A stretch of 64,000 bases of DNA from Amoebophrya sp. A120. Taxonomy: Eukaryota; Protista; Dinoflagellata. Made by a program: the position numbers and the translations under genes. Shown here piece after piece: positions 6,219 through 55,900 of this stretch. Position 1 is the stretch's first letter, and every line of letters starts with the position of its first letter. The notes below the pieces were generated by a model. That model did no database searches. It saw only the letters and a program-made list of their open reading frames with translations, and was not told the origin of the DNA. The stretch spans positions 4,513,175 to 4,577,174 of the forward strand of contig CAJINV010000006.1 of assembly GCA_905178155.1 (NCBI GenBank), read 5' to 3'.

Positions 6219-6367
6219 TAAAAGAAACCAACATATGTGATTCCAAACTGCAACCACATTCTGACCGATCCTTCCTGGAATCCTCAATCCACTGTGACTT
6301 GAACTCGCTGGAAGACCGCCTTGGTGAAGCCTTCGTAGCTCTCGGGGATTCGTACCATCCTTTTCAA

Positions 6368-29200: not shown

Positions 29201-32200
29201 ATCCGAGAAAACGAAAGCCACTTCAACTTCGCGCTCCGCCTCCGCCCGCAGTGTGCGAGACGGCGGTTTTTCTGACAAGAATTATGGCACTGGTGCTGTA
29301 GTAGACAATAGCAAGAAGAAAAATCTGTCCTTCTGGGACCAGGGTACGAAAAGCAAAGACAGTCCTTTCCTACAGGTTGAGAACGACCCGCAGAAGAACT
29401 TGATCCAGGTGCCGTTTCCGAGGGAAAGAAGTAGTGGCACAAGAGTATCCCCGGCTGATGTAGATGTTTCCAAATCAACATCTTCGCAGAAGATTAGAGG
29501 GAGGAGTAGTCCGACGCGAAACTACGTTCCACAAGAAGCCGGTGGCGGTTCTTCCTCTTCCTCTTCTCGCTCTGCTGCAACGACAGCGAAGAAAAACGAA
29601 GAGAAGCAAATCCTGCGTACTATTCGGGCGTTGAAACAACAAGTACAGAACGCGGAAAGCCGGGCGGAGGAGATGGAGATGCGGGAGGCGCTTGATGTTC
29701 TGCAACACGGTGAAATGAATAACGCGGCAAGAAGAGGCGGCTTGTTACGCTCCCCACTAGCTGATTTTTACAACGGCAACAACTTCTCGCGACTCCAAAG
29801 AGGTGGACTCTCGTCCCCAACGACCTCTAGAAGGATGGCTGGTGGTTTAGCAGCAGAACCATTACCCCCTGCAACCAGCCCTTCCTTCCAATCCCGGTCC
29901 GGTTTTATCCTACAGAGCCTCGAGAATTCCCGAAACGCGGTGAAAAACAGTATGAGGAAAAGCAATTTTGGAACGACGACGACGACGGACACAGGAGCAG
30001 ACTCCATGAGCACGCCCTCGGGTCCCTCAAAATCCTCGGCTAGCACCTTCGTGAAAAATTTAATCGATCAGTTGTTTTCGGACAAATTGGATCAGTTGGA
30101 ACAGGAGTTCAAGGTGAAAATGGAGGAATTGCACGTTGAGGAGGACAAGTATGAACTGCAAAAGCACCGTACTAGTAGTATGTAATTGCATTACAAACCA
30201 CCTCAGAATGACAAATGGAATCTGTCATGCTGTTCCACATTGGGATCGAGATTTGTAATGCATAATTGCAATTAGAAATTACTACGGATGCGATACTTTT
30301 GCACAGCATAACAAAGCCTTGGCGGCAATTGACGATTTGGAGAACGAGGAGAGTGCAAAATTGGACAAGCAGTTCTTCGAGTTCGAGGATGAGGATATGA
30401 AGAAAGAACAAGAAGAGGAAATTCTGAACCAGAATCACATCAGAGATGAGAAGAGTCGGGTAGAGAGTTTAACTCGAAACACGTCCAGTTCCAGTGCGAA
30501 GGTAAAGGTTTCAACATTGGGGCAAGATATTAATAGAAGGGATCGGTCGAAAAGCCGCGAAGAAGGTTCAGTAATGTTGGATGACGATGATGTTGAAAAT
30601 AAAGAGCAAACCCCTACCGCCCTGTCCCAAGAAACTGGTAAAAAGACAACCACATCTTCTACCTCCAGACCCGCCATGAAGTTCGCCTTGTCTAATTCTC
30701 TTTCCGGAAACAACGCTTTGAAAACGGATATTGCGGCGAGGTCCAGTTCCCCAACGATGAATAACGGAAAAAGCCCGAAAACCACCACGAAAAATGCAGG
30801 CAACACGACCAGAAGTAGAAACCAATACAACACGAACACGTCAAACAAGAGCAATAAACCGACTTCCGAAGTGGGAAAGCAATCCGCGCGGGACCGGCAC
30901 TACAATCGGAAACAGAAGCTGCTTTTGCACAAGTATGAGCCGAAAAAGATGAAAGTGATGAACGAATTTGAGGAGAAACGAAACATCTTATTAGTACAGC
31001 AAGAAGCGGATTTGGAAAAGTTCGAATTGAAGCGGCAGAACACTCTCGAGGCGGTGAACAACGCGATCCAAACGGACTTTGAGCTCATGACGTTGAAGAA
31101 CGAAAACAACGCGAAATTCGGCCACGGTCGCAACCAGGAGCACTTTGCGGAGTTGGCGGAGAAGTGCTACGCGCAGGTGGAAGAACTGAGAAACATGCAT
31201 GAAAAAGAAGTGGAGAAGCTGAAAAGAGAACACGATTTATTGTTGGAGGATATCAAATGCAAATATGTCTGGGTCTGGAAACTTGTAATGCTGGGCTGTC
31301 AATAGTGAATGGTCTGTAATGCACAGCCAAGCATGAGAAACATTTGCGAGGCTCAGCGTTGGCCTCTCTACATGACAAACTGCGTTTTTGCATGACAAGC
31401 AAAAGGGTCTCTTCTTGGACATGCATCACAAACTTTTCAGTCATGCCAGACAAGCATGACAAACCTTGCATCCTTCCAGACCCAGACATATTTGCAATGC
31501 ATAGAGGAAAAAATTTTGCAAAAAACCGACCAGATTCTAACCGACAGCACCAACGAAATCCGGGGGAAAGAGACGAAGTTTGAAAACGAAATTAAGCAGT
31601 TGGAAGAGTCGTACGAGCGGAAAATCTCGCTGTTGAAACTGGATTTGGAAACCACGGCGAAGCAGATTGAGAAGAAGGCAAACTTAGATTTTATGGAGTG
31701 CAAAAATGTCTGGGTCTGGAAGATTGCTACATTGTCACGCATGTCTGACATGACTCAAGAATCTGTGATGCATGGGCACGAAGCGGTCTTCTTAACTGTC
31801 ATGCAAAAACGCAGTCTGCCATGCGGAACACGCAACACAAAGGAGCCCAAAAATTTGTCATGCTTGGCTCCGTATTGCAGTCGAGCTCCCATTCACTTCT
31901 AGCATTACAAGTTTCCAGACCCAGACATCTTTGCAATGCATAGATTTGGAGATTCTGCAAGAAAAATTCGACAATCTGCAGAAGGACTACGCGTCGGAGA
32001 AAAAAATCGCGGCGGTTTTACGGGATCAGGCGTTTTGTGTTGGGGAAATCGTACAGGATCAGGATGACGCTAATGCTCCTCCTGCTGCTACCACCTCTGA
32101 AGTACTAGATCCCCTCGATGCTGGCGCGGGCGCACAAAGTCGTGCAGCAAAAACAAGTCCGGAAAAAAACAGCAAGCAAAAGCTCCTCGACTATTTCATC

Positions 32201-35200
32201 TCCATTCGCCAGGCTTCGGAGTCAGGAAATGGCAGTATCGCTACCAGTCCAGAAAAGCAGCTCGATTTGATAAGGCAGAAGCAGGAACAGGTGACCCAGA
32301 TGAAGGAATTGCACTCCGAGGTTCAAAGGTTAAAGCAGGAACTCGCACACTTAGAGCTCTCCAAGGTAGACCACGAGATGGAAATCGTCAAGCAGAGCGA
32401 GAAAAGGGAGAAGGAGAATTTAAAATCGTTATTACAGGCGCGAAAGGAGAAGGATGAAGTGCAAGTGAAATTGAGTACCACCACCGCGGAGTTACATTCG
32501 AAAACGGTCACGATCAACGAATTTTTGCCGAGGTTGGAGAAGGAGTTGAAAGATTTGAAGGAAGACTTGCAGCTGAAACAGACTATCAAAATGAAAAATC
32601 CCCCCTCCCCATAGATATTGAAACGGAAATTTCTGTTGCTGGATTTGTGAACACAAATCAGCTCTGTTTTGCAGTGGGGCACTACAAGCAGAGCCTAAAG
32701 CCTGCGTGGGGGGGGTTTGGCGTAGGTGCTTAGCATAGCAGAGGCCTGCCAAGATGCCGCCACAGCATTACAAACCGCCTGCATAGCGCGGCGGATTTTT
32801 CTTTGGATTTGCCTTCTTGCAAGAGAGACAGGATTTCTGATCACAATTCAGCATCACACACAAATCTTTAGGAGCGTACCTTTTCAGTATAATGGGGAGG
32901 GGAGATTTTTCCTCACAATACAGACCCGAATTGAGAAGCTGCAGAAGGAGAAAAGGAAACTCACCGATTCTCAATTTGAGCAAACGCAAAAGATGAAAGA
33001 GGACAGTGCTGGAGAGTATCCTGTGCAAAAGTATCGTACTCGTACTAATCGCATCCATGCAAGACAAATTTCTTTTTCAAGCTAAATCAGCATGAGAAAT
33101 TCCATTTGTCACGCTGAGCCAATTTGTATTGCAATACTACGAGTACGATGCTTTTGCAGTTCATAGAGAGGTGAACCAGCTGAAACTGGAATTGAGTAAA
33201 GCGAATCACGAGCTGCATAGTCAGACGCTGAAGAATATGAATTGTAAAAATGGCTGGGTCTGGAAGAATGCCAGACTTGTCATGCAGATTCTGTATGATC
33301 CATGACGCCTGTATTGCATGAGCTAGCATCACATATGTCCAGAGGGCCTCCTAATGCCTATACCGCATGAGAAATGCTCTGTCCGCGTAGCACAAACTGG
33401 ACTCCTGTTGCTGGTCATGCAATACTAATTTTTTTGGAATCCAAAGACAGCATTACAAGTTCCAACCTTCCAGACCCAGACACTTTTGCATTTGATAAAG
33501 AATGAGAAATTGGAGAAATTAGTTGTGGAAACAGAAGCGGAGTTGAATCGGTTCAAAACGGAAGTTATCACATGCAATAATATGTCTGGTTCTGGAAGAA
33601 AAAGAATGCAAGTTTGTCATGCTTGGTCGACAAGACACAAAAGTCTGTCATGCTCGTTGCGCTACAGTGCCACTTGTTTGTCATGCAAAAAGGCAATTTG
33701 TCATGCGGTTAACGCTAGATAGAGTCGCTCAGAAACTTGTCATGCGCGGCTCTGCAATACAGTTTGCGTATGATTCGGACATTAGCATGACAACTTTCCA
33801 GACCCAGACATATTTGCAATGCATAGAAGTGGTGGAAGAGTTGAAGAAGAATCACGAAGAGAAACTGGCGGACACGATTTTGAAACATGAAGAAGAGAAG
33901 AAAGGTATGATGGGGGAGCACGAGGAAAAAGTGCGGAAGTTGGTTTTGATGAAAACTGTCGATGTAGACGGAGGAGAAGGAGGCGCGTCGAAAAAGAGCC
34001 GAAGAAGCCGCTCCCTGTCGAGCAAGAAGAGCAACAGAAAATTGTCACAACAAGGTAAAAGCAAAGAGCCTGCTCCTTCCCGGCGCTCTGTGGACGCGAC
34101 TTTGGCGAAATTGACAGAAAAAGAACTCAGAAGGGAGGCGGCGGAGTGGAAGCGGAAAGCGAACTACTTGGAGAAATTGCTGGACGAGGCGAGGGACCGG
34201 GAGCAGGAACTGACCGAAAGGCTGTACAGCGGAAAAGGAAGAGGAGACCACACATCGCACAGAAATAGTGCAGGAGCTGTTGCAACTACATCCAAAAATC
34301 TTTACACGGCCAGCAGTGCATCTCCGACTTCTGCAGCCGCATCTAGCCTAGTGCAGAAGGACGAAAAAATCAGGAACTTAGAACAGCAACTCGAATCGGA
34401 GAAGCAGCAGCGGGAACAGGAAAAGAATTTAAACACGTGGCTATCAAAAGGAAAAATCCCCCCTCCCCATATCGAAATGGAAATCTGTGATGCAGGATTT
34501 GAGGTACCAAATCGACTTGTCATGCTAGAAGGCCAAGAGCCGCAGTCGTGGTCCCTTTTGCAGGCAATTTGTCATGCTGTTTCCCACTCTCAGCTGCCTC
34601 CTATCATGCTGAAGATGCAAGGCTCCCCCACGCCACCCAGCACTACAGTCCGCATCTTTTCCCGTGTAGCATGACAAAGCTGATTTGTGACAACAAATCT
34701 GCATCACAGATTTCCGTTTTGACATGGGGAGGGGGGATTTTTCATTTTGATAGTGGCTGTTGCAATCTTCCGCATTTGGATCGTCAAGTAGAGAACATCG
34801 CGGCGACTTCTATCAAATGCAAAAATGTCTGGGTCTGGAAGAATGCGAGCTCTGTCATGCTAGTCTGGCATGACTCTTAAATCTGTCATGCACGTTACCC
34901 AAGAGCCTCATTTTGCTGTCATGCAGAAACGTGGTTTGTCATTCAGAATAGGCAACACCTAGAAGCTCAAAAGCTTGTCATGCTGAGCCAGCACTTGTGG
35001 CCTGTTCATGATACGCCACCCAGCATCACAAGTTTCCAGACCCAGACATTGTTACAATCCATAACTTCTTCGACAGTACAACTAGCGGTGGGGGCGGTGG
35101 CAGGATGAAGGATAGATATCCTGAGAAAAAAGCGTTACACGTACACATTGTGTTGCAGGCCAAGCAAGACAGACAAGCTCTGGCATGCCGGATATGCATA

Positions 35201-38200
35201 GGGGCTTCGTTTCATAGTTGTTTTCCCGTAGGATTTTTGCATTACAAGTTTTCTCTCTCATGCAGCGAAATTTGTGTTGCTGAATTGGCTACAAATGTGT
35301 AACTGTAACACTTTTTTCGTGGGATAATAGACTACCGAAAGGTAGTACTGCCATGGGAGCTTCGTCGAGTAGCAGCAGTGTGGCAGATGATGCAAAGGTG
35401 GAAAAGACGCTGCTGTATAGGAGAAAGAATGACGATGATGAAGAAAACGGCGCTTCCGACATTTCGGAACAAGATGCCGATGGCATGGCGGCCGCAGTAG
35501 AGACAACTTCTGTGAGCAAAGACTTTCTTTTCCTGGAAGGTGATCATTTGATGACGGGGCCAGCGTCTTCCTCTGGAATTGCGTCGTCTTCCTCTATGTC
35601 CCCTTTTTCCAGCCTGATCCCCTCTGTAATTGGCAGCAAGGACAGCAGTTTGATGCCCAACAACTCCACCTCTGGATCAATCGCGATGGAGGTGAACTAC
35701 AGTGCGCCGGCCAGTCAACATGGTGCTGGTTCTGCGGCAATAGAAATATCTACGACTTCTCGATCCACATCAAAGGCAAGCAGCTGCGGTGGATCATTGT
35801 CAACCTCCCTGCGTCGAAGTGAACAGGTAGAAGTACAACCTGAGCAAGAACGCCCACCAGCGCGGTCGGGACCGGATTTTCTCTTCTACCAGGAAACCAC
35901 GCCAGCGATGTTTTTGAAAAACAAAAAGTCGCCAGCGGCTTCCACATACGGCGGTGCTTCATCATCAGGAGCTGTTGCTGTTTCTTCTTCTTCCTCTGCA
36001 ACACCTCTGGCGCCAGCAGTCCAACCTCTTCGCGACGGTATAGAAATTAGGCCGCAGGAACAGGTCGAGGAAGAGGGCTTTCAGGGTTTGCGCGCTCCCC
36101 CAACAAGTACTAGAACGCGACCACGGGTTAGTTTTAGTACTAACAGTCGAAAGAACTACGAGCTGTCAGCATCATGTTCAGGGACGCAGGCATCGCGGCG
36201 GGAGGACAGCTTTTTGTACTACGACGAGAATTCAGCCGAGGAACAAGATGTTGAGGACCGGGAAAGGAGCACAACTATCGTCCGAATTGATGTTGACGAT
36301 GAGGAAAGAAATCTCGAAGAGGACGACCACGACGAGAGCCTCAGCTCCGCCGCCGAGGAAAAAGCGGCGCAGAAAATCCAACATTTGATGAAGCGGCAAA
36401 CGGATTTGTTCGGGAAAAATACTAAAAACCAGTCTTCCTCCTCCACTTCCAGCAATAGAAACAGCAACTTCTTATTCGTGCAGAAACGGGATTTTGAGAA
36501 GCTCGAATCGGAGTTCATCACCAGTTCATCTGGTGGCAGTTTCTGTGGGGTGTCGTTCCTACAAGTAGAAAGAAACGACGACGATGAGGAAATGAGGGAC
36601 ATCACAGGAGTAGGAGATGAAAATCAACAGCAAGTGTCAACATCAGCCGCGACCACGAAGCGCTTAGCAGTGGTATTGAACAACATCCGACAGTTGAAAA
36701 AAGCGTTAATCCAGTCGAAGCACGACTCGAAGCTGAAGAAGCAACTCGAAGTCCGGTTGAAACTTTTACAAGAAAAGCAAGACAAGTACAAGAAGCAGAT
36801 TTTTGAATATCCTGAGTAAAAACGTACCCACACCAGAGTCAGGATGGGGATTTTGCAACACAAACCTAGGAGTTTTGTGAGTCACGCATGACAAGTTTCA
36901 GTCCGTAAGGTAGTGCAAGTTAGCAAGGAAAGCCGCATCACAAATCGATCTGCTGATCCTGTTTACAGCATTACAAGTTCCCAAACACGATTGAAAATGC
37001 CTGTCATGGGGTTGCGCATCACAAATGTTCCTGTCATGGCAAAGTCGCATGACAACTCTGGCGTGGGTACGTTTTTACTCAGGATATTGAATTTAAGAAT
37101 TTCATGGACGAAAAAATCGACCAGAAATTTAACCAGGAGGCGGAGCATATGAACTGCAAAAGCATCGCACTCGTAGTGATTGCAGATATGCATGACAAAC
37201 CTCCTTCCAAAGCTAAAACGGCATGACAAATTACATTTGTCATGCTAAGCTGATTTGTAATGCAATTTCTACTAGTACAAGCAGAAGCACGACTAGTACG
37301 GTGCTTTTGCAATCCATAGAGCATGAGAGACTGCAAAAGAAGTTTCTCCTCGCGAAAGCGGAGGAATTGCAGGAGTTTGAGAAGGAACTGCAGAAGAAAC
37401 AGAAAAAAATCATCGAGAACAAGCAGAAAGCGATGCTGGAAATCGAAAAGGAATCGAAGACGAAGGAAAAGTCATTAGCGAAAAAAAATCTCGAAACGCA
37501 TAAGGCGGAAATGCGGAATGAGATTTTGGAGCAGGAGGTGCAGAAAATGGAGAAGAGATTGTTTGAAGAGGAGGAGTTGCGGAAGAGAGACAGCGAAGAG
37601 AAACAAAAGGAGTTGGAAAAAGTGAAGGAGGATCTGGTAACCCAACAATCGTTAACCAACGCCTCGAAAAAGCAACTCGAGCAGATGACAAAAGATTTGC
37701 TGACCGCGGGGGGGACGAAGTTCCAGCACGACAAGATCGCGAACGAGAACAAGAATTTGAAACAGGAAGTGTCGCTGATGGAATCTCATTTGCAAGATGT
37801 GAAGAAAGACTTGGAAAAGGCGAAAAGACTTTTGAAGGAAGGGTTGCTGGTGAAAGAAGGTCAAAACGCCGGTGGGAGTCTGTCGTCAAAAAAATCGCTC
37901 CAAGAGCAAGTGCTGGACGAATTTGCACTGCTACAAGCGCACACCGACCAATATCGAAGAAGAAAACATTGCTAGTGTAACTTTGTGATGCGCAACATGC
38001 ATACTTCTTGCGGCTGTCATGCTAGAAATGCATTGCAAGGTCCACTCAAGCGCGTTTTCATGTACCATCTGCGCATGACAGGTTATTTTTGCTTTCATGC
38101 CAGACAGATTTGTAATGCTGTTCCTCCAAAAAAGTTGCACCTACACTCTTTTTTTCTTGGATAACCAACTGCACAGCTTCACCGACGATTTCGTGTTTGA

Positions 38201-39156
38201 TGTGGTGGTATGAAATGCAAATATGTCTGGGTCTCCTGGAAACTTGTAATGCTAAAAGTGAATCGTAGACGCACTGCAATGCGTAGCTACGCATGACAAA
38301 TTTTTTGGCTGCCATGTCTTACGTGTTCCGCCTGGCAAACTGCGTTTTTGCATGACAGGCAAGAGGGTCTTTTCGCGCCTATGCAAGACAGATTCTCGAG
38401 TCATGCCAGACAAGCATGACAAACGTGCACTCTTCCAGACCCAGACACTTTTGCAGTTCATAGGTGGTGAAGTCGCGACTGAAGCGGGAGACGAGGCAGC
38501 TGAAGATTATTGCAAGGAAAAATCCCCCCTCCCCATATCAAAACGGAATTTCTGATGCTGGATTTGTGTACACAAATCAGCTTTGTATTGCAGGAAGGCA
38601 GTGCGGCCAGATCCCCAGGCTAAGTAGGGGCGTATGGGTCTAGTTGTTCAGCATGACAAACGGCTCCCCTTTAGGCCCGACAGCGTGGCAAATCGCTTCC
38701 ATAATGGGGCGGAAGCTTCTGCCCTTGTCTTCTTGCAAGACAGATGTGATTTGTGGCCTCAAATCAGCAACACCAACACAAATCTTCGGGAGCATGCCCT
38801 TTCAATATGGGGAGGGGGGGCTTTTCATTTTGATAAAGATGCTCCAGGATTTGGTGGAATTAAGCGGGATCAACGAGGCGAGGAAATTGAAGATGCAAAC
38901 GACAACAAATAAAAATGACGGAACGACAACTGGAAGCAGGGGCGGTGAACTAGATCAGGATGGGAAAGACCGACCTCTTGGAGCTGTGGACGAAAGGGAC
39001 ACTTCTGGCACGAGGACCGGCCTTGAGCTGCAACAGACGCATGAAAAGACCTCCTCTTCTTTCTTTCCCAACGCAACAACCTTGTTCGAGCTGGATGCGT
39101 TTAATGAGGATTTTTTTCAGGTTTTGAAACAAACGAAACCGGCGATTGGGGCGTGA
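23214..39156 (+). CDS. Very large low-complexity/coiled-coil protein, 19 exons; no family recognised
   Basis: ATG 23214 to TGA 39156. Removing 18 TAT..ATA elements plus one TSD copy each gives a continuous frame with long E/K/Q/L heptad-like stretches and Ser-rich linkers. Confidence 0.85.
26789..27197. mobile_element. Introner, family A, with ~230-bp internal insert; stop-free in frame
   Basis: TSD GCTAT/GCCAT; element plus TSD = 414 nt, so the raw ORF reads through. Confidence 0.82.
27351..27620. mobile_element. Introner, family B
   Basis: TSD AGAAG; frame restored (IEK|QKF). Confidence 0.9.
27926..28899. mobile_element. Introner, family A, with ~800-bp nested GC-rich insert
   Basis: TSD GAAGA; insert ~27956-28760 lies between TATATA runs. 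Confidence 0.85.
30150..30310. mobile_element. Introner, family A
   Basis: TSD ACAAG/ACAAA. Confidence 0.88.
31251..31503. mobile_element. Introner, family B
   Basis: TSD GAGGA; similar to 1215-1473. Confidence 0.9.
31692..31942. mobile_element. Introner, family B, opposite orientation to 31251-31503
   Basis: TSD GATTT. Confidence 0.9.
32584..32920. mobile_element. Introner, family C
   Basis: TSD CAGAC. Confidence 0.88.
33017..33165. mobile_element. Introner, family A
   Basis: TSD GAGAG. Confidence 0.88.
33236..33497. mobile_element. Introner, family B
   Basis: TSD AAGAA. Confidence 0.88.
33566..33825. mobile_element. Introner, family B
   Basis: TSD GAAGT. Confidence 0.88.
34442..34752. 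mobile_element. Introner, family C
   Basis: TSD GTGGC. Confidence 0.9.
34811..35063. mobile_element. Introner, family B
   Basis: TSD ACTTC. Confidence 0.88.
35117..35326. mobile_element. Introner, family G
   Basis: tatcctgagaaaaaagcgttaca...tgtaacacttttttcgtgggata; TSD ATAGA. Confidence 0.88.
36808..37086. mobile_element. Introner, family D
   Basis: TSD TTGAA. Confidence 0.92.
37148..37318. mobile_element. Introner, family A
   Basis: TSD GAGCA. Confidence 0.85.
37952..38163. mobile_element. Introner, divergent TIR type
   Basis: tatcgaagaagaaaa...tttttttcttggata; TSD ACCAA. Confidence 0.8.
38209..38462. mobile_element. Introner, family B
   Basis: TSD GGTGG; empty site present in the duplicate at ~41065. 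Confidence 0.93.
38508..38835. mobile_element. Introner, family C
   Basis: TSD AAGAT; empty site present in the duplicate at ~41105. Confidence 0.93.
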
Positions 39157-40071
39157 TGATGATGATGATGAAAATTATGGGGATCATCATGTGGAGCACG
39201 ACCGCGGGGCAATTGCACAAAACGTGAGCTCTACAACTTGCACTAGTATAGCGGAACTTGTTCAAGATCAAGATGAACGTGATGAACTTGTGACTCTATC
39301 GTTCTGTAGGATTTATTTTCAATGTTACTTTTTACCAATAATCTCAGCTGCAGTAGTTCCTTGTTTTGGAACAGCAGTTGCGCTAGCAAGCCGTTCTTAA
39401 AGAAGCCATAATCGATAGTAGACATTGCCGAGCAGAGTCTGCAACTGCAAGGATCTTTTTTGTTGTAGAATTACAGTTAAATTTCAAAGTTAAAGTAGAC
39501 GACGAAGAGCACGAGGATGCCAGAAGAGGCTAAAACGCACAAGAGGATGCTAAAAATTATGTTTCGAGCGACTTTAGTTACGAAAGCGAGCCAGAAGTAC
39601 AAGTAGAGAAGTAACGATAGAACATGAACCGCAAAAGGCCAATGGCAAAATGCATGATGATGTCCTAGTGGGTCGACTACGTAGAAGTTGCTGTTCCGAT
39701 AATGATGATCATTTTTAACCACAAGCGATCATGGCAACTGGTGATACAGATCTGACAACTACTTCTGTTTACGTACTTAGCACTTTCTCGTCTCATCCAT
39801 CGCCTTTCGCGACACCACGCATGATTCACTTCTACAGCCGGCCAACTCGTTTTTGCTGCTTACATTTTTGACAAAATTACGAGCTGATGTACTATCGTGT
39901 AGAATTTATTCCAAACACCATATTAGACAACGGCCTAATTCGAATCTTTGGATGACTTATCGGCTTCTTGTCGCAGTAGAATAGCACCAGAGCAACCTTT
40001 TTTTCCTGTCTGTTTCCTGTCGTTTTAATATAGACTTCGAACAGAAATCTCTGCTCTCTTTTTCTCACAAA

Positions 40072-40408
40072 ATGGGCTACGTTCTTCGACGACACATGAG
40101 AGCCGCACACCTGAGCAAGAAAAATCCTGCGCCGCTCTATAATTGCTCGGTTGCCGGGTTCTTGATTGCAACTGCAGGTGCTTGTATTGCAGGAGCACTA
40201 GCAGCCTCGCATCACACGAGGACCTACACTGGCGAGAAAGCAGCAGAGGGAGCTACGAGGACCCACAGCCGCCTCCTTTCAGAAGAGCTACCCGGGGATG
40301 CGGACGCTGCGGCCGGTCCTGTCGTGTCCCCCGCCATGGTGGATCCACCTTTTCCAACAAGCGCGGAGAGTACAACATCTCCTACTTTCGCGGTAGGAAC
40401 AACGGGCG
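40072..40408 (+). pseudogene. Truncated 5' paralog of ORF 42574-45351
   Basis: MGYVLRRHMRAAHLSKK...ELPGDADAAAGPV matches MGYSFRRRMRAAHLSKK...ELPGDADAAAGPV, then breaks at the duplication junction. Confidence 0.8.
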
Positions 40409-41023
40409 ACCAACTGCACAGCTTCACCGACGATTTCGTGTTTTGCAGTGAGGCACTACAAGCAGAGCCTAAAGCTTGCGTGGGGGGGACGTTGGTGTAG
40501 GTGCTTAGCATAGCAGAGGCCTGCCAAGATGCCACCACAGCTCGTGGTGACACGAAATTCGCGACTTTTTTGGCTCCGTGTCACCGTCCCGTGTCACCAC
40601 TCGTGTCACCAACCCAAAAAGCTGCCCCGATGCCCTCCCACCCCCGCTTGATATCTGCCCAAATGGCCCCCAGATAGGCTTGGTGGCTGCCACAATGGAC
40701 CCCTGAATGCACGCGCAGCAGCCTGGAGTCAACATCTTCATGACGACTCCAGGCTGCATAACTGCATCTATTAAGGCTGTGGCAGAGGCTTTGCCTCTAC
40801 ATCAAAAGGTCAGGGCTAGCCGGCCCATCCTCCTCACGACTCTGACTACTTACAGTCAGAGAAGCGGCCTCCACTGGCTGAGAAAGGACAGGCGAAAGAA
40901 GCATCATCGCAGGCATTGAGACCTAGCACAAAGGCCGTCGCTGGGGGGGGTGCCAGAAATTCATATTGCTCGGCAGTCACCTGAAAGTCACGGACTGAAT
41001 TCCTAACGTCCATCCAAGCTGTA

Positions 41024-41665: not shown

Positions 41666-42573
41666 TGATGATGAAAATGGGGATCATGTGGAGCACCACG
41701 ACCGCGGGGCAATTGCAAAAAAGAACGTGAGCCCTTCATCTAATAAATTAGACTAGTATAGCGGAACTCCAAGAACTTGTGACCGTCGATCTGTAGGATT
41801 TTGGAATGTTACTTGTTTTTACCGATTATACTCTCCGCTGCAATAGTTCCTTGTTTTGGAACAGCAGTTGATGTGCTAGCAAGCCGTTCTTAAAGAAGCC
41901 ATAAAATAATCGATAGTAGACATTGCCGAGCAGGGTCTGCAACTGCAGCAAGGATCTTTTTGTAGAATTACAGTCAAAAGTCAAAGTAGACGACGACCAG
42001 CACGAGGATGCCAGAAGAAGCTAAAACGCACAAGAGGATGCTAAAAATGTTTCGAACGACTTTACTTACGAAAGCGAGCCAAAAGCAACGATAGAACATG
42101 AACCGCAAAAGGCCAATGGAAAAATGCATGATGATGTCCTAGTGGTTCGACTACGTAGAAGTAGCTGTTCCGATGTTGATGATCATTAGCCACAAGCGAT
42201 TATGACCGACAAGGCAACTGGTGATCCTGATCTGAAAACTACTCCTGTTTACTATACGTACTTAGCACTTTCTTGTCACATCTATCGCCTTTCGCGGCAC
42301 CACGCATGATTCACTTCTACAGCCGGTCAACTCGTTTTTTTCTGTTGCATTTTTGACAAAGTTACGAGCTGATGTATCGATCGTGTAAAATATTTCAAGC
42401 AACATATTGGACAACGGCATAATTCGAATCTTTGGATGACTTGTTGACTTCTTGTCGCAGTAGAATCAATAGCAAGAGCAACATAGACCACGAGCAGCCT
42501 TTTTTTCCTGTTTGTTTCCTGTTGTTTTAATATAGACGTCGAACAGAAATATCTGCTTTCTTTTTCTCACAAA

Positions 42574-45351: not shown

Positions 45352-46402
45352 GTCAAGTTGTGCCTCCCCTAGACACGATAAAAATGATTGTTGTAGCAGC
45401 TACAAATAGCTGCAGTGCCGCTTTGGAACTTGTCGCCTTTGACAGACGTAGTGTGTAGCAGTAGCCGCGGCCAACATTCAACATTGACATAAGGCCTTCT
45501 CTATTAGCCGTAAAAAGTTAGTAAATCTAAACGCATTGTGATTGTAATGAGTGATCGCGATGAGTGCATTTGCCTATGCAGACACTTTCCATGTCCATAT
45601 GTTAGTCCTACTGAGACGAAACAGATCGATGGATCGATCCTGTTTTAGCACTACGCCCTGTTTGAACGATTTGAATGATTTCTTGTACAATATATTCGAT
45701 TTTTAAAAGCTTTAGCAACCTACCTGATCTTGCTGTATGATGTCAATACGCGCCGCCGCCGCGACAACTCTTGACCTCACTTAGAGGAGCGCATCTTGAA
45801 GACAAGCTTCTTTATTTCTGCAAGTTTTGTATGATATCCCGAAAGTGGTCATCTACTTCGGAAACTTAGACTCTCACTTACCTGAAGCAGCCGCAGATTT
45901 AATTCCCAGGGACATTTCATTCTTGTACGCCAAAAAGAGTGCTGAAGCCAGCACAACTCAGTGTTCTTCGCTTTGTTCCTTTTTGTTGTGCGCCAGCAGC
46001 ACCTAGTAGCTCTTTCTCGAGATCGAGTTTCAACCCGACGGAGTAGTGGTTGACCGATGTGATCTTATTTTGAGGAAGTACAACAACATAACTTTTGTTT
46101 TGCTTCCATCTCAGGAACGATCGATCTGCTCTGGTGCTACTACAATAACATTAACACGCGCATGATCTTCTGCCCCTTGTTCACAGTTGACCAGGTTCCT
46201 TTTTTGGCGACGCAGGTCCCCTTATATGCTCGCACTTGGTCAAGTAGAACATCACACAGTAGGAGCCACAGTTTGAAAGTCCTCGTAAATAATAAATCGT
46301 GTTTGGTTTAAGCATTTGCTTTCGTGGATCTTATATTTCACTTTTTCTTTTGAAGACAAAAAAATATACTTGGAGCAGCTGCCTCGAGCGAAGAAAAACA
46401 AA

Positions 46403-49400
46403 ATGTCGACTGTCCGTGGAGGTGCAACATCCGGTTCATTTGTGCCGCGAAGGGACGACTACCCCCGCCACAAGAGCTGCCCGTGGTCCACCGCGCGGCC
46501 ATCATGCTTGTCGTTTTCATCTTCTCCTACCAGTTTCTTTGCTTTGACTTTGTTCACCGTCTACCTTCGCTCCGCTTTTCATGTTTTACCGGTAGCCGCC
46601 TTCGGTTGCTTTTCCGATTACAGCATGTCATGGTGTATATGCATTGCAAAAGTATCGTACTCGTATGAATGCATGACAAATTTCCTCAGCATGAGAGATA
46701 AAATTTGTAATGCGGATTTACCTTAAAAAGAAGATTTGTGATGCATGACAATGCCTACGAGTGCAGTGCGATACTTTTGCGCAGGATAGTGCAACAACCA
46801 CACAGAGGAGTCTTGCGTTCACGACTACACGTTTTCCGTTTCTCACTTCCAACGGAAACTGAACAAGTACTACCAGAAAAACCACCGACCACCGCTGCTC
46901 GAGGCGTATTTTTTGATAAAAACCCCGCAACCCTACCAAGCGGAGTTTTTGGATGCGGATTGCGCGCCGCCGTTGATCATGGCGCTGTTGCTCGTGTGCG
47001 AAGCGAGGATGGAGTACGACAGTGGACAAGCGGTGCAGTTGTTTGAATTGGCGATGAACTACTTGCAGAACCGGGTTTCACCAGAACAAGCGTACATTCT
47101 CACCAACACCGACACGTGGCCGTTTAAGAAAGCGGTTGCGAGAATTCAGACCATGATGACGGAGCTGGAACAGCGCAAATTGAAGATCGAGGAAAAACTC
47201 GCGGTGCAAAAACAACCAAGAATAAAGGTCGATTTCGTGATTTCCCACTGCAAAGAGCAAGATTTGAATTGGCTCGTCGAGGATTTGACCCCGATGCTTG
47301 TGACCGGGCAGTATCAAATGCAAATATGTCTGGGTCTGGTGGAAGGTTGGAACTTGTGATGCTAACTTTGGACTCTAAAAAAATCTGTATTGCGTGACCA
47401 GCAAGAGGAGTCTAGTTTGTGCTACGCGGGGAGGGCATTTGTCATGCGGAGTAGGCATCAGGAAGCCCGCTACAGATCTGTGATGCTAGGCCGTGCATTA
47501 CAGACATCCTGGGTCATGCAAAATATGCATGACAAACCCTGCAACATTCCAGACCCAGACGCTTTTGCATTTTATAGCCAGGCGAGGGAGACGATTCAAC
47601 CGAAGCTGCTCGTGTACGAAAAGTGTCACCAGGTGACGGATGTCGGGAAGGTTTTTGAGCAATGGAACAACTACCAGAAGAGCAAGGGAAATGTGCAGAA
47701 AATCGCAACAGAGAATCCGTTTGACCTTGATCCGAGCAGGAATCCGGTGCAAGGTAGTTACGAGATCGTCCCGACGCCTGACCCGTCCTTTGTTGTATCA
47801 AATGCAAATATGTCTGGGTCTGGAAGAATGTAAGTTTGTCATGCTTATCTTTCACGACTCCTAACTTTGTGATGCATAAGCAGGATGCTGAGAGTCTTTT
47901 GCCTGTCATGCAAAAACTACGCAGTTTGCCATGCAGAAAACGGAACACATAGCAGCTCAAGAACTTGTCATGCTTGGGTGCGTATTGCAGTGCTTCCACC
48001 ATTCCCAAACCAGCATCACAAGTTTCCAGACCCAGACATATTTGCAGTTGATATGTTGCCCGGGGAGACGAATGCTCGGCGTACTTGAAACACATCCGGA
48101 ATTCCTTCGGAGGAGGAGGAGGTTTTGCCCACGGTGACGAAATGAAGTCGAACACGTTTGCCGACTTTACGTTTTTTCTCCACTCGGACCCCTGGGACCA
48201 CATGCACAAGGAATTTATGAGAGTGGACAACTAGTATTTTTGCCACCTGAAGATGAAGTCCCCGTCATGTTGTGCGGAAGAGGATACTAAGACCTAGGCA
48301 CTTATCTAAAGGATCATCATGCACCAGGAGCTCGGCTCCCTGATGAAAACAAACCGAAACTCACGCCCGCGATTGTAGCTCTGGGAAAGATGAAAGTGAT
48401 GAACGAATTTGAAGAAAAACGTATCGCAAGAAAAAAGTGTTACAGTTACACATTGTGTTGCAGGCCAAGCATGACAGACAAGCTCTGCCATGCGGGATAT
48501 GCATAGGAGCCTCGTTTCATAGGTGTTTTCCCGGAGGATTTCTGCATTACAAGTTTTCTCTCTCATGCAGAGAAATTTGTGTTGCTGAATTCACTACAAA
48601 TGTTTAACTGTAACACTTTTTTCGGTGGATAAAACGGAACATCTTATTAGTACAGCAAGAAGCGGATTTGGAAAAGTTTGAATTGAAGTATAACCCGCTC
48701 AGGTGTTACAATCTCAAACGTTACAATAGAATCTAGAATTTGTGTTGCAAAATGCGCAACATCTGGCCTACTCCCACAGGAGCGCGCATGACAAGTTTCG
48801 GAGCTCCAAACCCCATGAGAATCTGCCGAAATTTGTATTGCGAAAAGCCCGATTCTCTGTTTGGTACTCATGCTGTTCATGCAACACAAATTTCACATTC
48901 TACTGTAACGTTTGAGATTTACTGTAATACGGATCACCGTGTCCCTGAAAACAAACCGAAACTCACGCCCGCGATTGTCTGGTAACCAAATGCGTGCGCG
49001 CGCGCGCGCAGAGGTGGGCGCGCGCGCTCTGCGCGCTTGCGATATTGCTTAGCAAACGCAGCGCGAAGGCAGTTGCCGTTACCATATAGGGCAACCGCCG
49101 GGAGGCGTGAAGGTCAGGGAAATGGCCAGAAATGAAGCGGGAGAAGGGAAAAAAAGCGGACCAGATGGGAAAATGGCCAGGAGGTCAAAAATGTCGCAAA
49201 AATGGCAGAAACCAAGCGGGAGAAGGTGAAAAAAGAGCATTTTTGCGGTTTGGCCCACTTGATATCTGAAAAAGAGACGGACTATTTTTTGCTCCGCCCG
49301 GTGGCCAGCTGCGTTGGAGAAGCAGGCCCGCGACCTGTCCGGAAGCCTTGGGCCGCTTCGTAACTGGAAAAAGTTGGAAAAAAATGACAAAAAATTGCTT

Positions 49401-52047
49401 CATAACGTGGGTGGAAGCAATCGTCGGATTTTGTCCAGATCACCCGGGCCACTTTGAAAATGAAAAAAGATGAGAAATTGCGCAAAAGCGCAATCCTTCC
49501 GCAGGCTTCAAAACTGCCAGTCAGATGCGGGCGGTAAAAATGTCCAGGTCGCCGGGGCCACTTGGAAAATAGAAAAAGACCACTTGGAAAATAGAAAAAA
49601 GACTTGGAAAATAGAAAAAGATGAGTTTTCTAAAGGCTCCCTGAAAACAAACCGAAACTCACGCCCGCGATTGATAGAAGTCGCAATACCATAACCCAAG
49701 AAATTTCTCATGCGTTCATGCTGTACAAAGCGCCGCTCTACCATGAATGACTCAGCAACACAAATTCGCCGCGCGCTTCCAGACCCAGACAAATTTTTGC
49801 ATTTGATTCGCGTTCAACCCCCACGACTGGACGCACTATCAAAAGGAAAAATCCCCCCTCCGCGTCCCCATATCAAAAATCGGAAATCTGTGTTGCAGAT
49901 TTGTGGTCACACATCAGCTTTCTCATGCTAGAAGGCAGAAGAGGCGGACTGTAGTGCTGGGTGGCTTGGGAAAGCCTTGCATCCTCAGCATGACATGAGG
50001 CAGCTGGAAGTGGGAAACAGCATGACAAATCGCCTGCAATTAAGGCCGCGACTGCGTCGCTTGGCCTTCTAGCAATACAAGGCGAAGACTTGTGTACTCA
50101 AATACAGCATCACAAGTTCCCCCTGAAAAAAACCGAAACTCACGCCCGCGATTCCAGTTCTGGAAACTTGTATTGCAGACACGGCTCCTGCTCCTCGCGG
50201 GCCTAAATATAAGATATAGCGTTTAAATTTCTAACTTGTACGACCAACGAAGGGGAATAATGCTAATGTGGCACGTCGAGTTCTTCTTGTCTTCTCTTCC
50301 ATACACTTCATGTCCGTGATTCTGTCCACCATCGCCGCAAAAACTTTCGACAGCGAGAAAAACGGATTCTTACACCTCAACGGCCCGCGACACGTCCGAA
50401 CGCTGACGCCCTGCCTCCAGGCGGTGTCCGAGAAGATTTTCGGTTTCCCAGTGAAAAACTCCGTCGGGCCGTACTGTTATTCGAAGTAAAAACATCCCCA
50501 CCCCAGAGTTGTCATGCAAATCTGCATGCCAAAAAAGTTTCTCTTGCGAAGCCCCATGACGAGAAGCTTTTTCTAGTCGTGTTTTGGGATTTGTGATGCT
50601 AGAAATAGCGTGATATGATAGATCTGTGATGCTGCTGAACTAGCTGAACAGGATCACACTACGAGGGCGAACTTGTCATGCGAAACAACCAAAGTTGGCT
50701 GATTTGTCTAGCAGATATTCCCATCTTCAACACTCTGGTACTATGGGGACGCTTTTACTCAGGATAACTGTTGTGCCCAGTTCATGGTGACGAAGGAGCG
50801 CATTCTGAAGAGGCCGCAAAGCTTCTACAGCAACATGCTAACCATGGTAAATGGGACCATGACTGAAGATTTGTGTACCAGTAGCAAAACCGCGCGGTCG
50901 ACGCATTGCTACGGAATGGAATTCCTCTGGCACCTGGTGTTTTCCGACTTATCTAACGAGGAACTCCAGTATCTGAACGAACAGGGATCTTTAGTGCAGC
51001 AGCAACTGCATATGACAGTGCACAACTCCCCCTGCTCCCCCTCATTTGTAATGCAAACTGTCAAGAAATCAAGTCGCTGCCTTGTGGCACTGTTTGCATG
51101 ACAAAGTCCGGAACAAACCCAAACAGCACTACATTAGAGCCATACATTTGTCATGCATAGACTTCATGCTTGCTCGCGTGTGTATTGCTGCTCATGCCAT
51201 ACAAATGAAGGGGAGCAGCGGGAGTTGTGCACTCTCATACTGCAAAAAAACGAGTTACAACTGACTGACGAAGTCGAGCAACAACAGGCGATGATTGACT
51301 CGGTGTTCGACCCCCCATTATGCATTGCAAATATGTCTAGGTATGGGAACTACTTGTGATGCTGAACAGTGGATGGTGAAAACACTTTCGAATAGTACAG
51401 CCAAGCATGACAAGTTTGCAGAACGCCTTCTGATGTTGCACAGTTCGCATGACAGCCTCCTGCAGCGTTTTTGTAAATGTAATGACAAAAAAGGCCGCTG
51501 GGGGTCATGCAATACAGAATCCACATGAATGTAAGACCAGCATTGCAAGCTGCAACTTTCCAGACCCAGACATAGTTGCACTTCATATCAATTACGCCCG
51601 GACGACTGGTCGTTGCCGATTCAGTTCCGGCTCAAGTTTGGGGTGGAGCACGCGAAAAAGGATTGGAATGACGTCGTTTTATCGCCCAACGTCCCGAAAA
51701 AAATCGTGACGAGACAAGACTGGAATGGGAACGAATTTGTCTACACACTCGGCGGAGAGCAGCACGTCGCGAGCTTGAGCGGGAAAGGCAACAGCAGTCC
51801 GGCGGGAAGCGCGAGTGGGATCCAGAATCAAGCGCAACTACAGCAACCACAACATCAAGCCTTGGGATCATCCGGATCTGCAGCTTCTTTGCCGCCAATA
51901 TCGGTTAGGCCAGTAAGTAGTGACACAACTACTAGCGCAGGAACTGGAACTACAGCTTCCGTTGGTGCTTCATCTTCTTTGAGTGCTGCGCAACAGCAAC
52001 TGAGAAACGCGAATGCCGCTGCTAGTATGTTGAACCAACAGTTCTGA
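46403..52047 (+). CDS. DUF3431-like protein, probably secreted or type II membrane; 8 exons
   Basis: Spliced motifs FVISHCKEQDLNWL, RGDECSAYLKHI, ADFTFFLHSDP, YCCAQFMVTKERILKRPQSFY and YGMEFLWHLVF match my recollection of the DUF3431 pattern. Hydrophobic N-terminal segment; 7 introners. Confidence 0.8.
46638..46788. mobile_element. Introner, family A
   Basis: TSD GTGTA/GTGCA. Confidence 0.87.
47312..47576. mobile_element. Introner, family B
   Basis: TSD GGCAG/GCCAG. Confidence 0.87.
47796..48053. mobile_element. Introner, family B
   Basis: TSD TGTTG. Confidence 0.9.
48334..50153 (+). repeat. Four ~35-bp direct repeats (ccctgaaaacaaaccgaaactcacgcccgcgatt) separated by unique spacers of ~566, ~657 and ~444 bp
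   Basis: Copies at 48334-48375, 48942-48977, 49635-49673 and 50121-50153. Confidence 0.92.
48422..48631. mobile_element. Introner, family G, inside a captured exon fragment
   Basis: TSD AAACG; similar to 35117-35326. Confidence 0.9.
50478..50766. mobile_element. Introner, family D
   Basis: TSD ACTGT; frame restored (PYC|CAQ). Confidence 0.88.
51011..51239. mobile_element. Introner, family F
   Basis: tatgacagtgcacaactccc...gggagttgtgcactctcata; TSD CTGCA. Confidence 0.9.
51319..51587. mobile_element. Introner, family B
   Basis: TSD CCCAT/TCAAT. Confidence 0.8.
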
Positions 52048-52969
52048 TAGATAGGTTTGCTTGAGAGCCTGCATGAAAAGCAAAAATTACAGCGAGGCAC
52101 GAAAAGACTTTTATACCGATGATAGTGATCAACAGTAGACGAGACTGTAGGTCTCACAGTTGGCCCAGGAGTGTTGTTGAGTGAGTTCCTCTACTACTGC
52201 AGCTTTCAGCAATACGTTTGAGAGTACAGTTTGAGCTTGTTCTTATGTGGTTTGAAGAAATAGACCAGGATTTTGGATTTGCGACACCTTTGTGGAAAAA
52301 AAATGTTCGTATGATCCACCACATAGTTAAAGTTTTCAAAAAATGCTCTCCAGGACCAAGCTTACCACTATTAGCCCCTGTAGCCACATCATTTTTTTCT
52401 GCTTGTTTTCGTGTGCATCTTCTTTCTGAATTGAGTAGTTTACTTTATTTTTTTTCCTTTTTTTTCTCCGACCCTAGAACTTTTTTCCGTCTTGTTGTGT
52501 GGTTTGATTGATCTGTAGTTTTTATTTTCGACGTTCGGTGTCATGGTCTTGCACATGCTCTTGGTCACGTCTCAAAAAGAGAAGGACTACTACAAATTCA
52601 GCCCGCGTTCTACGGATTCCAATTCTTTGCCATGAGCTGTTATTAAACTTAAAGCACGACTCTGCCTTTCCTCGCCACCGATCACTTGAAGCATCTCTGA
52701 CCACAGGAGCACCTCATTGTTGTTTCTGTGTCGACCACGTTGTGCAGCTCAATGCTGATGTTGGTCCCTTCACTTGATACAACTACGTGATAAATACCGC
52801 TAGTTGCAATACTCCTGCCTCTTCTAAGTTGTGCCTTCTTGTTTTCGCGGCCTACTACATCACAACTACATAATTGACTGCAAGCAACAAGTTGTCAACT
52901 AATAGACGAGGAGTTCTTGTTGCGCGCTCACCATTTCTACAGCGAGAAATCGAGTTTCGTTATCAATGA

Positions 52970-55900
52970 ATGCAGTTCTTCGCTCGTGGTCCTAATGCGC
53001 CATCGTGGCCGTCCCACAGAAGAGGGCTATGCATTGCAAAAGTATCGTACTCGTATAAATGCATTACAAATTATTTCCTCAGCATGAGAAAGAAAAATTG
53101 GTAATGCAGATTCGCCTTGGAAACAAGATTTGTAATGCAAGGCCCGCATTTCTTGTACGAGTTGTACGATACTTTTGCACAGGATAAGGGCTCGTCCTCG
53201 TGAGCAACCTCTTGTTTTGCCCGCCTCTACTGCGGAAATGGTTCTTTTTGCTTGGTTCCGTCAGCACCGCCTCCAACGATGGCAGCTCTACTACGCCTTT
53301 TCGGGCGTCCGCAACGATCCCGGCGGCGACCGCGCTCTTCACCTGGTCGGGAGACGAGGATGAGGATAACAGCGCAATTATCCTGAGTAAAAACGTCCCC
53401 ACCCCATAGTTGTCATGCAGATTTGCGATTACAGGAAGATTTGTAATGCGCATCTCCGTGGGAGGCATTTCCAGTTGCGTTTTGGAATTTGTAATGCTGT
53501 AAACGGGATGAGCAGATGGCTTTGTGATGCGGCTGCACTTGCTAAACTGCACTACACTACGGACTGGAATTTGTCATGCGTTGCTCCCAAAGCCTCTGGG
53601 TTTGTGTTGCTAAGTTCCCAACTTGACTATGGGGTGGGGACGTTTTTACATATGATAGCAATCTGGGAAGATGTGGAGCGAGAAAGTTTCTTGCAAGATG
53701 AGGAAGAGTATGACTTGCAAAAGTTGTACTAGCATAAAGTGCAATACAAATTGGCTCAGCATTGCGGATTTACATATAGCGCCTAGATTTGTAATGCATA
53801 ATTAACAGCAATGAGTACTAGCACGCTACTTTTGCAACGCATAAAGAGGATTGGTCCACCGCCGGGACGGAGGTTGGAACCGGAGCGGGGACGACAACAA
53901 GAACGGCGAGGAAGAGAGCCACGAAAACTGCAAGTAAAAAAACCGCTGGTGTGGTAATAGACGATGGCGAAGAAGCAACAGCTCCTGAGAAGGAGGAAGA
54001 ACTACCGGAAGCAGCAGGAGATGACGTAGTAGGTGACGCAGCAAAAGCAATACGACCAGATGAAGACAAAGAGGAAGGTCTACTTCCAGAAGTAGAACCT
54101 CCAGATAAACAAGAGGACCAAGACCGTGAAGTAGATGAACCCAGCAAAACTGCATCCTCGTCCTCCCCCCGAGATGCCGCTGCTGCAGCAACCTCAACAT
54201 CTTCAGACTCCGACGACCCCGAAATATGCATTGCAAAAGAATCGTACTAGGAGAGATAGCATTTAACAAATTTTTTTAAGAATAAAAACGCAACCTGTGA
54301 TGCTAAATCAGGTGGAATATTAGATTTGTCTTGCACGGTTGCTGCAATTATACTACGAGTGCGATAGTACTTTTACAATGCATACGAAAAGTCCGTCTAC
54401 GAAAGGGGGTTGTATCCGAAAGACCCGGATTTCACACGACAAGTGAACTGCGACTTTTCATATGCAATACAAATTTCCCGTACATCATGTACAAGATGCA
54501 TCACAAAAAAAAAAGATGCATCACAATTTTCACCAATTTAGGGCGTAACACTTCATCATGCTAAACCAGGATCGGAGCCAAGTTTTGTGATGCAGAGACC
54601 GCATGTGTACGTGTACGGGAAATTTATTGTGGATATTTCAAGGCCAGAATGGCAGCAGTACCGGCACGTTTACGAAGTAGCGCTGAACCGGGAGGACCAA
54701 CATGACGACGACACGAGAAGCAACCAAGAAAAGATCAACGAGCTAATCCAGTCCACGAGGATACTGTCGTCTGTCTTATGGGCACGCGCGAGAAACGTGA
54801 CCGATATTTTGACCTGCAACGTCGGGATTATCGCGGGTTATCAGCGCCTCTCGCACGCGCTGCTGATCGCGGGTCTCGGTCCCAAAACCGCACTGTACCG
54901 CTACCGGTTGTTGCAGTTAGCTCTGATCTATGAACTGCAAAAGTATCGTAATCGTATAAATGCATTACAAATCTTCTCAGCATGAGATTGAGAAATAAAA
55001 TCTGTGATGCTGATTTGCCTTGACAAAGAAATTTGTAATGCAAGACCTGCATTTATACGAGTCCGACACTTGTTTTGCACAGCATATGATCTTCATTTTC
55101 ACACTGAGAAACGCGAACAAGATACCGAAAGTCGCAGGGGAGTATTGGGCAGCGTCGGAGCATATGCATTGCAAATATGTCTGGGTCTGGAATAAACTTG
55201 TGATGCGGGTTAGCGAATCTTAACGACGCCGCAATTGACGGCCCAGCATGACAGGTTTCATCAGGGGTGCTAGGTGTTGTCTATTCTGCATGACAAACTG
55301 CGTTTCTGCATGATAGAAAAGTTGTGAGGCTTTTGGGTGAGTTGCATCACAGGCTTGAGATTCATGCCAGGCTAGCATGACAAATCTCGCAATCTTCCAG
55401 ACGCAGATGACATGATTGCATTTGATAGAGCAGTACATTATTCCGAATATCATGGCGATAAGAAGACACGTGGAGCAGGTGGAATTGCAGCAACGGAAGG
55501 AAAGAGAGTGGTTCACCGGCAGAACCGTCGCGAACACCTTTAGAGACCCGAACATGCGAATAGCGATCGTCAGTATCTGCGCCTACCCGCCGACAAGTAC
55601 TTATGATATAAATACTGATGCATTTTTGTGGTCATGCGAATGGTTTGTGAGAATTTTGTAGCTGGTTGTAGTTCGACTTCATCAGCGAGAGAAGAATCTT
55701 GTGCCATCCCACAATTTGAATCCCGTGCAATTGCAAACTAAATGCGAATGCTTCTCTTTCAACTACTACAAATCAGGTGACATTGCTTTGAAGGACGTCA
55801 CACCCGTTAACCGCGAGGTCTACGCTATCATTTGTCAAAACGTCCCCGCCCCCGGGTTGTGATGCAGATTTGCAATCACAGGAACATTTGTAATGCGCAT

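Follow-up and report, generated by a model that had tools for sequence, protein, structure and literature searches.

Inverted-repeat introners of Amoebophrya sp. A120 are removed in both orientations, very probably from RNA and in one fixed, asymmetric register

We examined a 64,000-nucleotide (nt) stretch of the genome of the dinoflagellate Amoebophrya sp. A120 (contig CAJINV010000006.1, positions 4,513,175 to 4,577,174; hereafter the window), whose genes are interrupted by introners, and found that copies of the same introner family lying in opposite orientations are missing from RNA contigs in the same way. We have little doubt that these elements are removed at the RNA level and in a fixed register, and 15 informative junctions suggest that the intron reads N-TAT...ATA-NNNN, a single register that would not depend on the duplication flanking each element. 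As for what makes the cut, we lean towards a spliceosome that has lost its requirement for GT and AG and that acts on either orientation.

The window holds dozens of such elements, which are 135-974 nt long, start with TAT, end with ATA and carry terminal inverted repeats (TIRs). Our curated set comprises 64 of them, namely 58 of the 68 candidates of one scan (the ten low-scoring ones being discarded as chance pairs) and six of another, and six further window elements were revealed later by protein mapping. A perfect 5-mer duplication flanks 49 of the 64 curated elements, as compared with 0-1 of 64 at eight shifted offsets. The available portion of the A120 genome paper (PMC7789003) describes RNA-supported introners that have inverted repeats of TAT, seven looser bases and AAA, direct repeats of 3-5 nt and no splice signature. 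A position table of the 64 window elements confirmed this TIR layout, in which AAA is the sole independent match, the TAT/ATA ends having been detection criteria; the pattern was unmatched in the viral contigs searched. Short, bounded by TIRs, with a duplication of constant length and dispersed copies both ways round, the elements are built like miniature inverted-repeat transposable elements (MITEs).

An initial annotation of this DNA had claimed that two families, B and D, are removed in both orientations from + strand genes. The eight copies that it cited are listed below, with reference to runs X3 and X6, which come from a single study as separate samples and may have material in common with the window's assembly.

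31251..31503, + strand: family B in reference orientation; duplication GAGGA; predicted intron 31250-31507; removed in an X3 contig
31692..31942, - strand: family B reversed, in the same + strand gene; duplication GATTT; predicted intron 31691-31946; removed in the same X3 contig
18133..18411, + strand: family D1 forward; skip of 284 in annotated protein P0001
18475..18754, + strand: family D2 forward; skip of 285 in annotated protein P0001
36808..37086, + strand: family D1 forward; X3 contig departs at 36802, before the duplication; frame stays open after removal
50478..50766, - strand: family D2 reversed; joint 50472-50767, skip of 294, runs X3 and X6
53379..53657, - strand: family D1 reversed; joint 53373-53658, skip of 284, runs X3 and X6
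55826..56158, - strand: family D1 reversed; joint 55820-56159, skip of 338, runs X3 and X6

All eight had been placed correctly and possess TAT and ATA ends, TIRs and a 5-nt flanking duplication, and all of their host genes lie on the + strand. With the TIRs stripped, 31692 aligned to 31251 in reverse with a score of 140 (69% identity), versus -4 forward and a shuffle maximum of -24. Stripped likewise, 18133 (98%) and 18475 (68%) matched 36808 forward, and 50478 (65%), 53379 (80%) and 55826 (65%) matched it in reverse, confirming that one family occurs both ways round in + strand genes. Family D resolved into two subfamilies, D1 (18133, 36808, 53379, 55826) and D2 (18475, 50478), each present in both orientations, and families A, B2 and C are likewise of mixed orientation.

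Removal was read from contigs that span the elements. An X3 contig of 7,116 nt, mismatch-free in the five pieces shown, skips 166, 514, 1,028 and 789 nt, lengths that are reproduced exactly when the ten intervening elements, each with 5 nt added, are summed. The B pair accounts for the skip of 514 nt, (253+5)+(251+5), which is observed for the two copies jointly, their outer borders being in place; neither orientation of family B is left unspliced in this contig. Across 50200-56630 the same 14 joints appear in each of runs X3 and X6, and 12 of 12 elements, three reversed D copies among them, are skipped as element plus 5 nt. For 18133 and 18475 the basis of removal is the annotated protein P0001, and for 36808 the X3 contig displays the upstream side of the junction. 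The contig that spans 53379 and 55826 also lacks two conventional introns:

55597..55776, + strand: canonical GT-AG intron, spliced in the RNA contig along with the elements
56484..56587, + strand: canonical GT-AG intron, spliced in the same contig

Because these GT-AG introns are absent too, we take the X3 and X6 contigs to be spliced RNA; their RNA nature is deduced in this way, the run record itself offering RNA as a guess, and all of the RNA evidence consists of contigs derived from cDNA, which drop rare forms. The reading frame agrees: taking each element plus 5 nt out of 23148-39153 leaves a single open frame that spans 18 elements and is 3,524 codons long, whereas neither of the remaining frame classes exceeds 1,269 codons. 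Open frame, RNA-contig skips and P0001 together bear out the earlier claim that one and the same rule restores the frame in the checked copies, the rule seen here being element plus 5 nt. Two raw RNA runs were set aside, X9 (6 reads) and X10 (123 reads), whose reads all fall on element interiors and point to another strain or organism.

The elements are present in DNA. Run X1 is DNA-like, with a flat depth of ~25-37 in unique DNA; single X1 contigs contain 30150 (in contig 28876-31275), 18783 and 19109 entire, and X1 reads on 25-30 nt into the remaining elements, unbroken at the duplication. The initial annotation had also proposed removal at the DNA level, in the manner of the pointer-bounded internal eliminated sequences (IES) of ciliates, with transcripts made from genes cleaned at some life stage. 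A precise event of this kind would take an element and one duplication, as is seen, and the DNA evidence is one DNA-like run in which rare variants are invisible, its contigs losing them, and of which a first joint listing gave 15 of 1,074 joints, mostly repeat-to-repeat joints of X1. Pointer-bounded IES are absent from expressed (somatic) DNA, however, whereas X1, as a single run, keeps the Amoebophrya elements, and the element-free contigs are spliced RNA; a related-strain assembly carries 309 elements as well. Moreover, the asymmetry of the cut (1 versus 4 nt, see below) follows the direction of the gene and not that of the element, whose orientation is random, which points to the transcript, so we regard excision of DNA as very improbable.

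Where the cut falls is hidden by a perfect duplication, over which the border slides across six or more positions, and it is the diverged copies that reveal which bases were kept. We express this as k, which counts how many left-copy bases the mRNA retains. Fifteen junctions were informative, three in RNA contigs and 12 in transcript-based gene models (P0001, P0002); left out were 26789, 46638 and 47312 (synonymous), 57192 and 57526 (uninformative against the A25 ortholog) and 4858 (unplaced in frame). Strand is given where assigned.

51319..51587, + strand: B-type element, duplication 3/5; RNA joint 51316-51591; k at least 3
56208..56422: element, duplication 3/5; RNA joint 56203-56424; k 1-4
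30150..30310: family A, duplication differing at position 5; X3 RNA contig; k at most 4
670: gene model; k 3-5
1215: gene model, read by hand; k 3-5
1898: gene model; k 4-6
2745: gene model; k 4-5
3314: gene model; k 4-6
14454: gene model; k 0-4
15116: gene model; k 1-5
15542: gene model; k 2-5
16742..16922: old family A element, duplication lost (1/5); gene model; k 4-5
17301..17777: old element with nested family A at 17618-17764; gene model; k 3-4
17841..18101: old element with ACA as its end and its duplication gone; gene model; k 4 only, donor one base before TAT
20432..20756: old element whose arms match poorly, duplication absent; gene model; k 3-4

Registers k=0, 1, 2, 3, 4, 5 and 6 fit 2, 4, 5, 10, 15, 9 and 3 of the 15 junctions, respectively. 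At 3314 the gene model takes k of at least 4 although k=3 would give GT-AG. Six old elements with 0-2 of 5 duplication matches and one that ends in ACA are still skipped as element plus 5 nt in the gene models. As elements whose duplication has decayed are nonetheless skipped in this way, we interpret the flanking repeat as a relic of insertion rather than a guide, contrary to the role given to it earlier; 51319 and 56208, with 3/5 matches, are removed in RNA, and the seven decayed old elements keep the same register.

Long stems flanked by direct repeats are a known substrate for template-switch artefacts, and with RNA evidence composed of cDNA-derived contigs, switching by reverse transcriptase, or polymerase skipping across the hairpin, has to be weighed. 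A switch is expected to retain the right copy entire and a skip the left copy entire, yet these fit 2 and 9 of the 15 junctions, respectively, which argues against both, and two of the three junctions read from RNA contigs conflict with each version. Elements lacking a duplication are removed as well (gene models), and the frame of ~3,500 codons appears only once its 18 elements are taken out. We therefore give such an artefact hardly any credence, and the skipping reaction that had been suggested earlier is likewise unsupported.

Several observations accompany these junctions. Near 16742-16928, 6 nt past the repeat-paired ATA, there is a second ATA followed by a 5-mer identical to the left one, and the gene model uses the repeat-paired ATA and retains the six bases. 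Element 17301-17777 is an older one in which the nested family A copy (17618-17764) sits 13 nt from the outer 3' end, and the element at 1898-2719 encloses a family C copy at 1936-2262; in both nested pairs the gene models take out the entire outer element. The arms of 17301 are predicted to pair only without the inner element (0.3 versus 12.9 expected pairs), a hint of ordered removal.

To widen the sample, we scanned metagenome contigs and obtained 148 loci, of which the 80 listed all come from the same assembly, that of a related strain for which one exon gave 89% identity. Within 147 loci we counted 309 elements, 244 with a perfect duplication, a proportion that may be raised by an element picking that favoured matches. 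Frame length gave a strand call for 145 of 333 unique elements, window included; 40 of 40 window calls were +, and the calls outside the window are unverified. Family-assigned metagenome elements were split evenly, 39 one way and 39 the other, and both element arms have nearly the same base profile. One locus of this strain (L057, 70-783) joins an exon like window 29310-29743 to sequence like 17147-17317, from a different gene, through a hybrid element with an A-like 5' end and a B-like 3' end, either an assembly chimera or recombination between elements.

Turning to splice signals, GT/GC-AG borders compatible with the same mRNA exist in 0 of the 23 RNA-supported elements (36808 with one side displayed), and the sole GA-AG option is at 31251. 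Removal thus needs no canonical sites, and cryptic canonical sites peculiar to each orientation, which would have explained removal both ways, were not found as far as the terminal sites go. Among 120 strand-called elements with perfect duplications, the duplication is free of base bias at every position on the sense strand, and the first exon base is a purine in 72 of 120, i.e., there is no purine preference after the 3' cut. The window genes offer three canonical donors, GTAC, GTAT and GTAT, and register k=4 places T-A-T of the elements at +2 to +4, as in those donors.

From these patterns we propose how an altered spliceosome might handle the elements. The 5' cut would lie 1 nt ahead of the opening TAT and the 3' cut 4 nt past the closing ATA, and the TIRs give every transcript the same ends, TAT-S-N6-AAA at 5' and TTT-N6-S-ATA at 3', such that the orientation of the element would be invisible to the machinery. 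As 1 nt on the 5' side and 4 nt on the 3' side add up to the 5-bp duplication, insertion at any coding position would restore the original mRNA. N-T-A-T would serve as a donor whose first base is free, the acceptor would be measured from the ATA motif, and the stem may join the ends and so stand in for the undetected U1. Reduced spliceosomes are known in which the acceptor is fixed by how far it lies from a branch point.

The initial annotation had reasoned that spliceosomal signals are strand-specific and that removal in either orientation must hence rely on symmetric features. The premise does not hold: a TIR element shows the same first and last 15-30 bases either way, so orientation independence alone cannot exclude a spliceosome, and published spliceosomal introners work both ways. 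Of the symmetric features that it named, the TAT/ATA ends and the TIR are retained here and the flanking repeat is dropped. What is accessible of the genome paper (PMC7789003) reports 83 of 89 spliceosome proteins in A120 together with U2, U4, U5 and U6, U1 not being found, and partial text on Amoebophrya strain Kv (PMC12005148) reports U1 and canonical introns. In Table S4 of the genome paper the nine predominant boundary types of A120 all start with N-T, in agreement with what k=4 predicts, and the nine of strain A25 all start with TT. The sequences themselves may also favour a spliceosome in that the arms have no excess of G-U pairs, both orientations are equally common and the duplication has no base bias. 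Further in its favour, the elements are missing from a contig that has lost GT-AG introns too, and Fritillaria provides a case of non-GT/AG introns spliced by a major spliceosome (see below).

Weighing against this proposal, 12 of the 15 register constraints, including all that exclude register 3, come from gene models, which can err, and the RNA contigs alone permit k=3 or 4. The putative branch motif YTRAY occurs in the last 59 nt of 5 of the 23 elements and CTRAC in 0 of 23. Position +5 is C in 97 of 145 elements versus G in 40, and the comparison draws on only three canonical donors, of which the one at 58181 was placed by homology and not RNA. Table S4 may mirror an aligner's bias towards GT-like donors. 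A long stem is possible in nearly all elements, and Euglena introns whose geometry is similar are viewed as non-spliceosomal. Finally, spliceosomal catalysis is proposed here from sequence and analogy.

A non-spliceosomal RNA nuclease and ligase that recognizes the foot of the terminal stem and cuts in a staggered manner, 1 nt outside it on the 5' side and 4 nt on the 3' side, much as proposed for the nonconventional introns of Euglena, would account for the same RNA-contig and register data, and the structure-guided cut-and-join reaction suggested earlier thus persists at the RNA level as a live rival, albeit one that we hold to be less likely than not. In its favour, arm pairing is predicted for all eight cited copies of families B and D (mean 0.79-1.00 at positions 9-24), folding predictions allow a long stem in nearly all elements, and branch motifs are scarce (see above). 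The Euglena signature, N3-CDG...CH'G-N5-6 (PMC12501133), is likewise staggered, its 5' overhang being short and its 3' one longer, and lacks terminal dinucleotides. On the other hand, expected end-to-end pairs number 25-31 in young elements but 0.3-12.9 in old 17301 and 8.7 in old 20432, and these weak-armed elements hold the register in the gene models. Nor do arm mismatches on the sense strand have a G-U excess (41 G-U versus 54 A-C, p 0.22, in the 56 coding-like of 128 B-type elements), a test of small n in which many mismatches are inherited family features. The motifs are unlike those of Euglena, and a purine follows the 3' cut in no more than the 72 of 120 elements noted above. That a dedicated non-spliceosomal system, a second splicing code without conserved terminal bases, arose here independently of euglenids we consider unlikely. 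In the same B-type elements the terminal ATA is intact at 168 of 168 positions in coding-like copies versus 95 of 102 in non-coding-like ones (p 0.001), and the 5' TAT does not differ significantly (p 0.16); this is a hint at most, since retrieval as well as strand calling favours intact ends.

Setting these elements beside known systems, the closest are the A120 introners published by Farhat in 2021, which share the organism, the TIR pattern, the 3-5 nt boundary repeat, repetition, RNA support and non-GT-AG ends. That account differs in that its mentions of orientation, four in the text and three in the supplement, concern genes, and in that one register and both element orientations are given here; its Fig. 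3 legend (PMC7789003) calls the border position unknown and varying relative to the hairpin. A search that reached few subscription journals, and text rather than figures, turned up no mention for Amoebophrya of either orientation independence or a cut register. Introners of Aureococcus, Micromonas and Polarella are likewise TIR transposons with duplications, spliced both ways, often with the mRNA unchanged (PMC10228655, 10.1101/2020.10.14.339549, PMC9860276, PMC12130899, as far as each was accessible). According to these partial texts they carry or recruit G(T/C/A) and AG, with restricted target sites and biased orientation, whereas the A120 elements have such sites in 0 of 23, no target base bias and balanced orientations.

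The nonconventional introns of euglenids (PMC12501133, PMC11282704, in part) resemble ours in lacking terminal dinucleotides and in having inset paired motifs, a shorter 5' overhang and slidable borders, which were resolved there by excluding direct repeats. Their description has CDG/CH'G set in by 3 and 5-6 nt, a purine that follows the 3' cut, and circular products; the A120 elements instead have TAT/ATA at 1 and 4 nt without a purine preference, and thus do not match N3-CDG...CH'G-N5-6 plus purine, a stem joining the ends being common ground as a prediction for the eight cited elements. In Fritillaria borealis (PMC13326754, PMC11282704, in part), introns are also MITE-derived and non-GT-AG beside a minority of canonical introns, and what these sources give is a changed major spliceosome with AG-AC and AG-AT ends favoured, U1 present and U2AF duplicated; in A120, by contrast, both terminal positions are free and U1 was not found.

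The elements themselves, and introners working in both orientations in other algae, are thus already published, and what appears to be new is one asymmetric cut rule, resolving a border that the literature had left open. About 65% of RNA-supported A120 introns are non-canonical, and the question of how they are removed was blocked in the genome paper by sliding borders. A fixed register predicts the exact ends of lariats or circles, such that spliceosome versus new enzyme becomes testable, and supplies a rule for correcting gene models. A transposon under no target-site or orientation constraint may fill coding sequence at little cost. If a spliceosome is responsible, it is indifferent to both terminal dinucleotides, and if an enzyme, it would be a second independent case of non-spliceosomal mRNA splicing; either is unusual.

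The host genes of the cited copies are as follows.

23148..39156, + strand: host gene of the B pair and of 36808; no Pfam match in four exons scanned
12684..21314, + strand: host gene of 18133 and 18475; annotated A120 protein P0001, 1,409 amino acids; 15 of 15 introns TAT-type
52970..63300 (approximate), + strand: host gene of 53379 and 55826; ortholog P0003 in Amoebophrya A25, Pfam PF05637

Exon queries were 100% identical to the annotated Amoebophrya sp. A120 proteins P0001 and P0002, the A25 ortholog (81% identity) aligns without extra residues at the junctions in its conserved part, and Pfam named one of 15 exon translations (DUF3431). The PF05637 gene has an apparent GT-started intron of 2.1 kb with a tandem array at 58600-60300 (103-nt unit, ~15 copies). 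At ~3.7-4.3 kb lies a gene that is paralogous, with 35% identity, to part of P0001 (regions 620-4414 and 12684-21314) and that has an in-frame stop at 4064-4066 inside the aligned stretch.

Some elements depart from the usual form. At 27926-28899, family A ends surround 974 nt that are mostly a low-complexity, GA/TC-rich palindromic expansion, with a perfect duplication, and a transcript contig picks up again at 28900. Intergenic 49600-50170 and 48689-48919 hold truncated pieces of elements that lack both matching ends and duplications, whereas the ends are preserved in genic copies. The 874 nt of 5347-6220 have 54-nt inverted repeats that start with TAG, not TAT, and no evident 5-nt duplication, which indicates a different element type. 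Two + strand frames, 39985-40497 and 42487-45348 (954 codons, element-free), have nearly the same N-terminal start, as expected of a local duplication.

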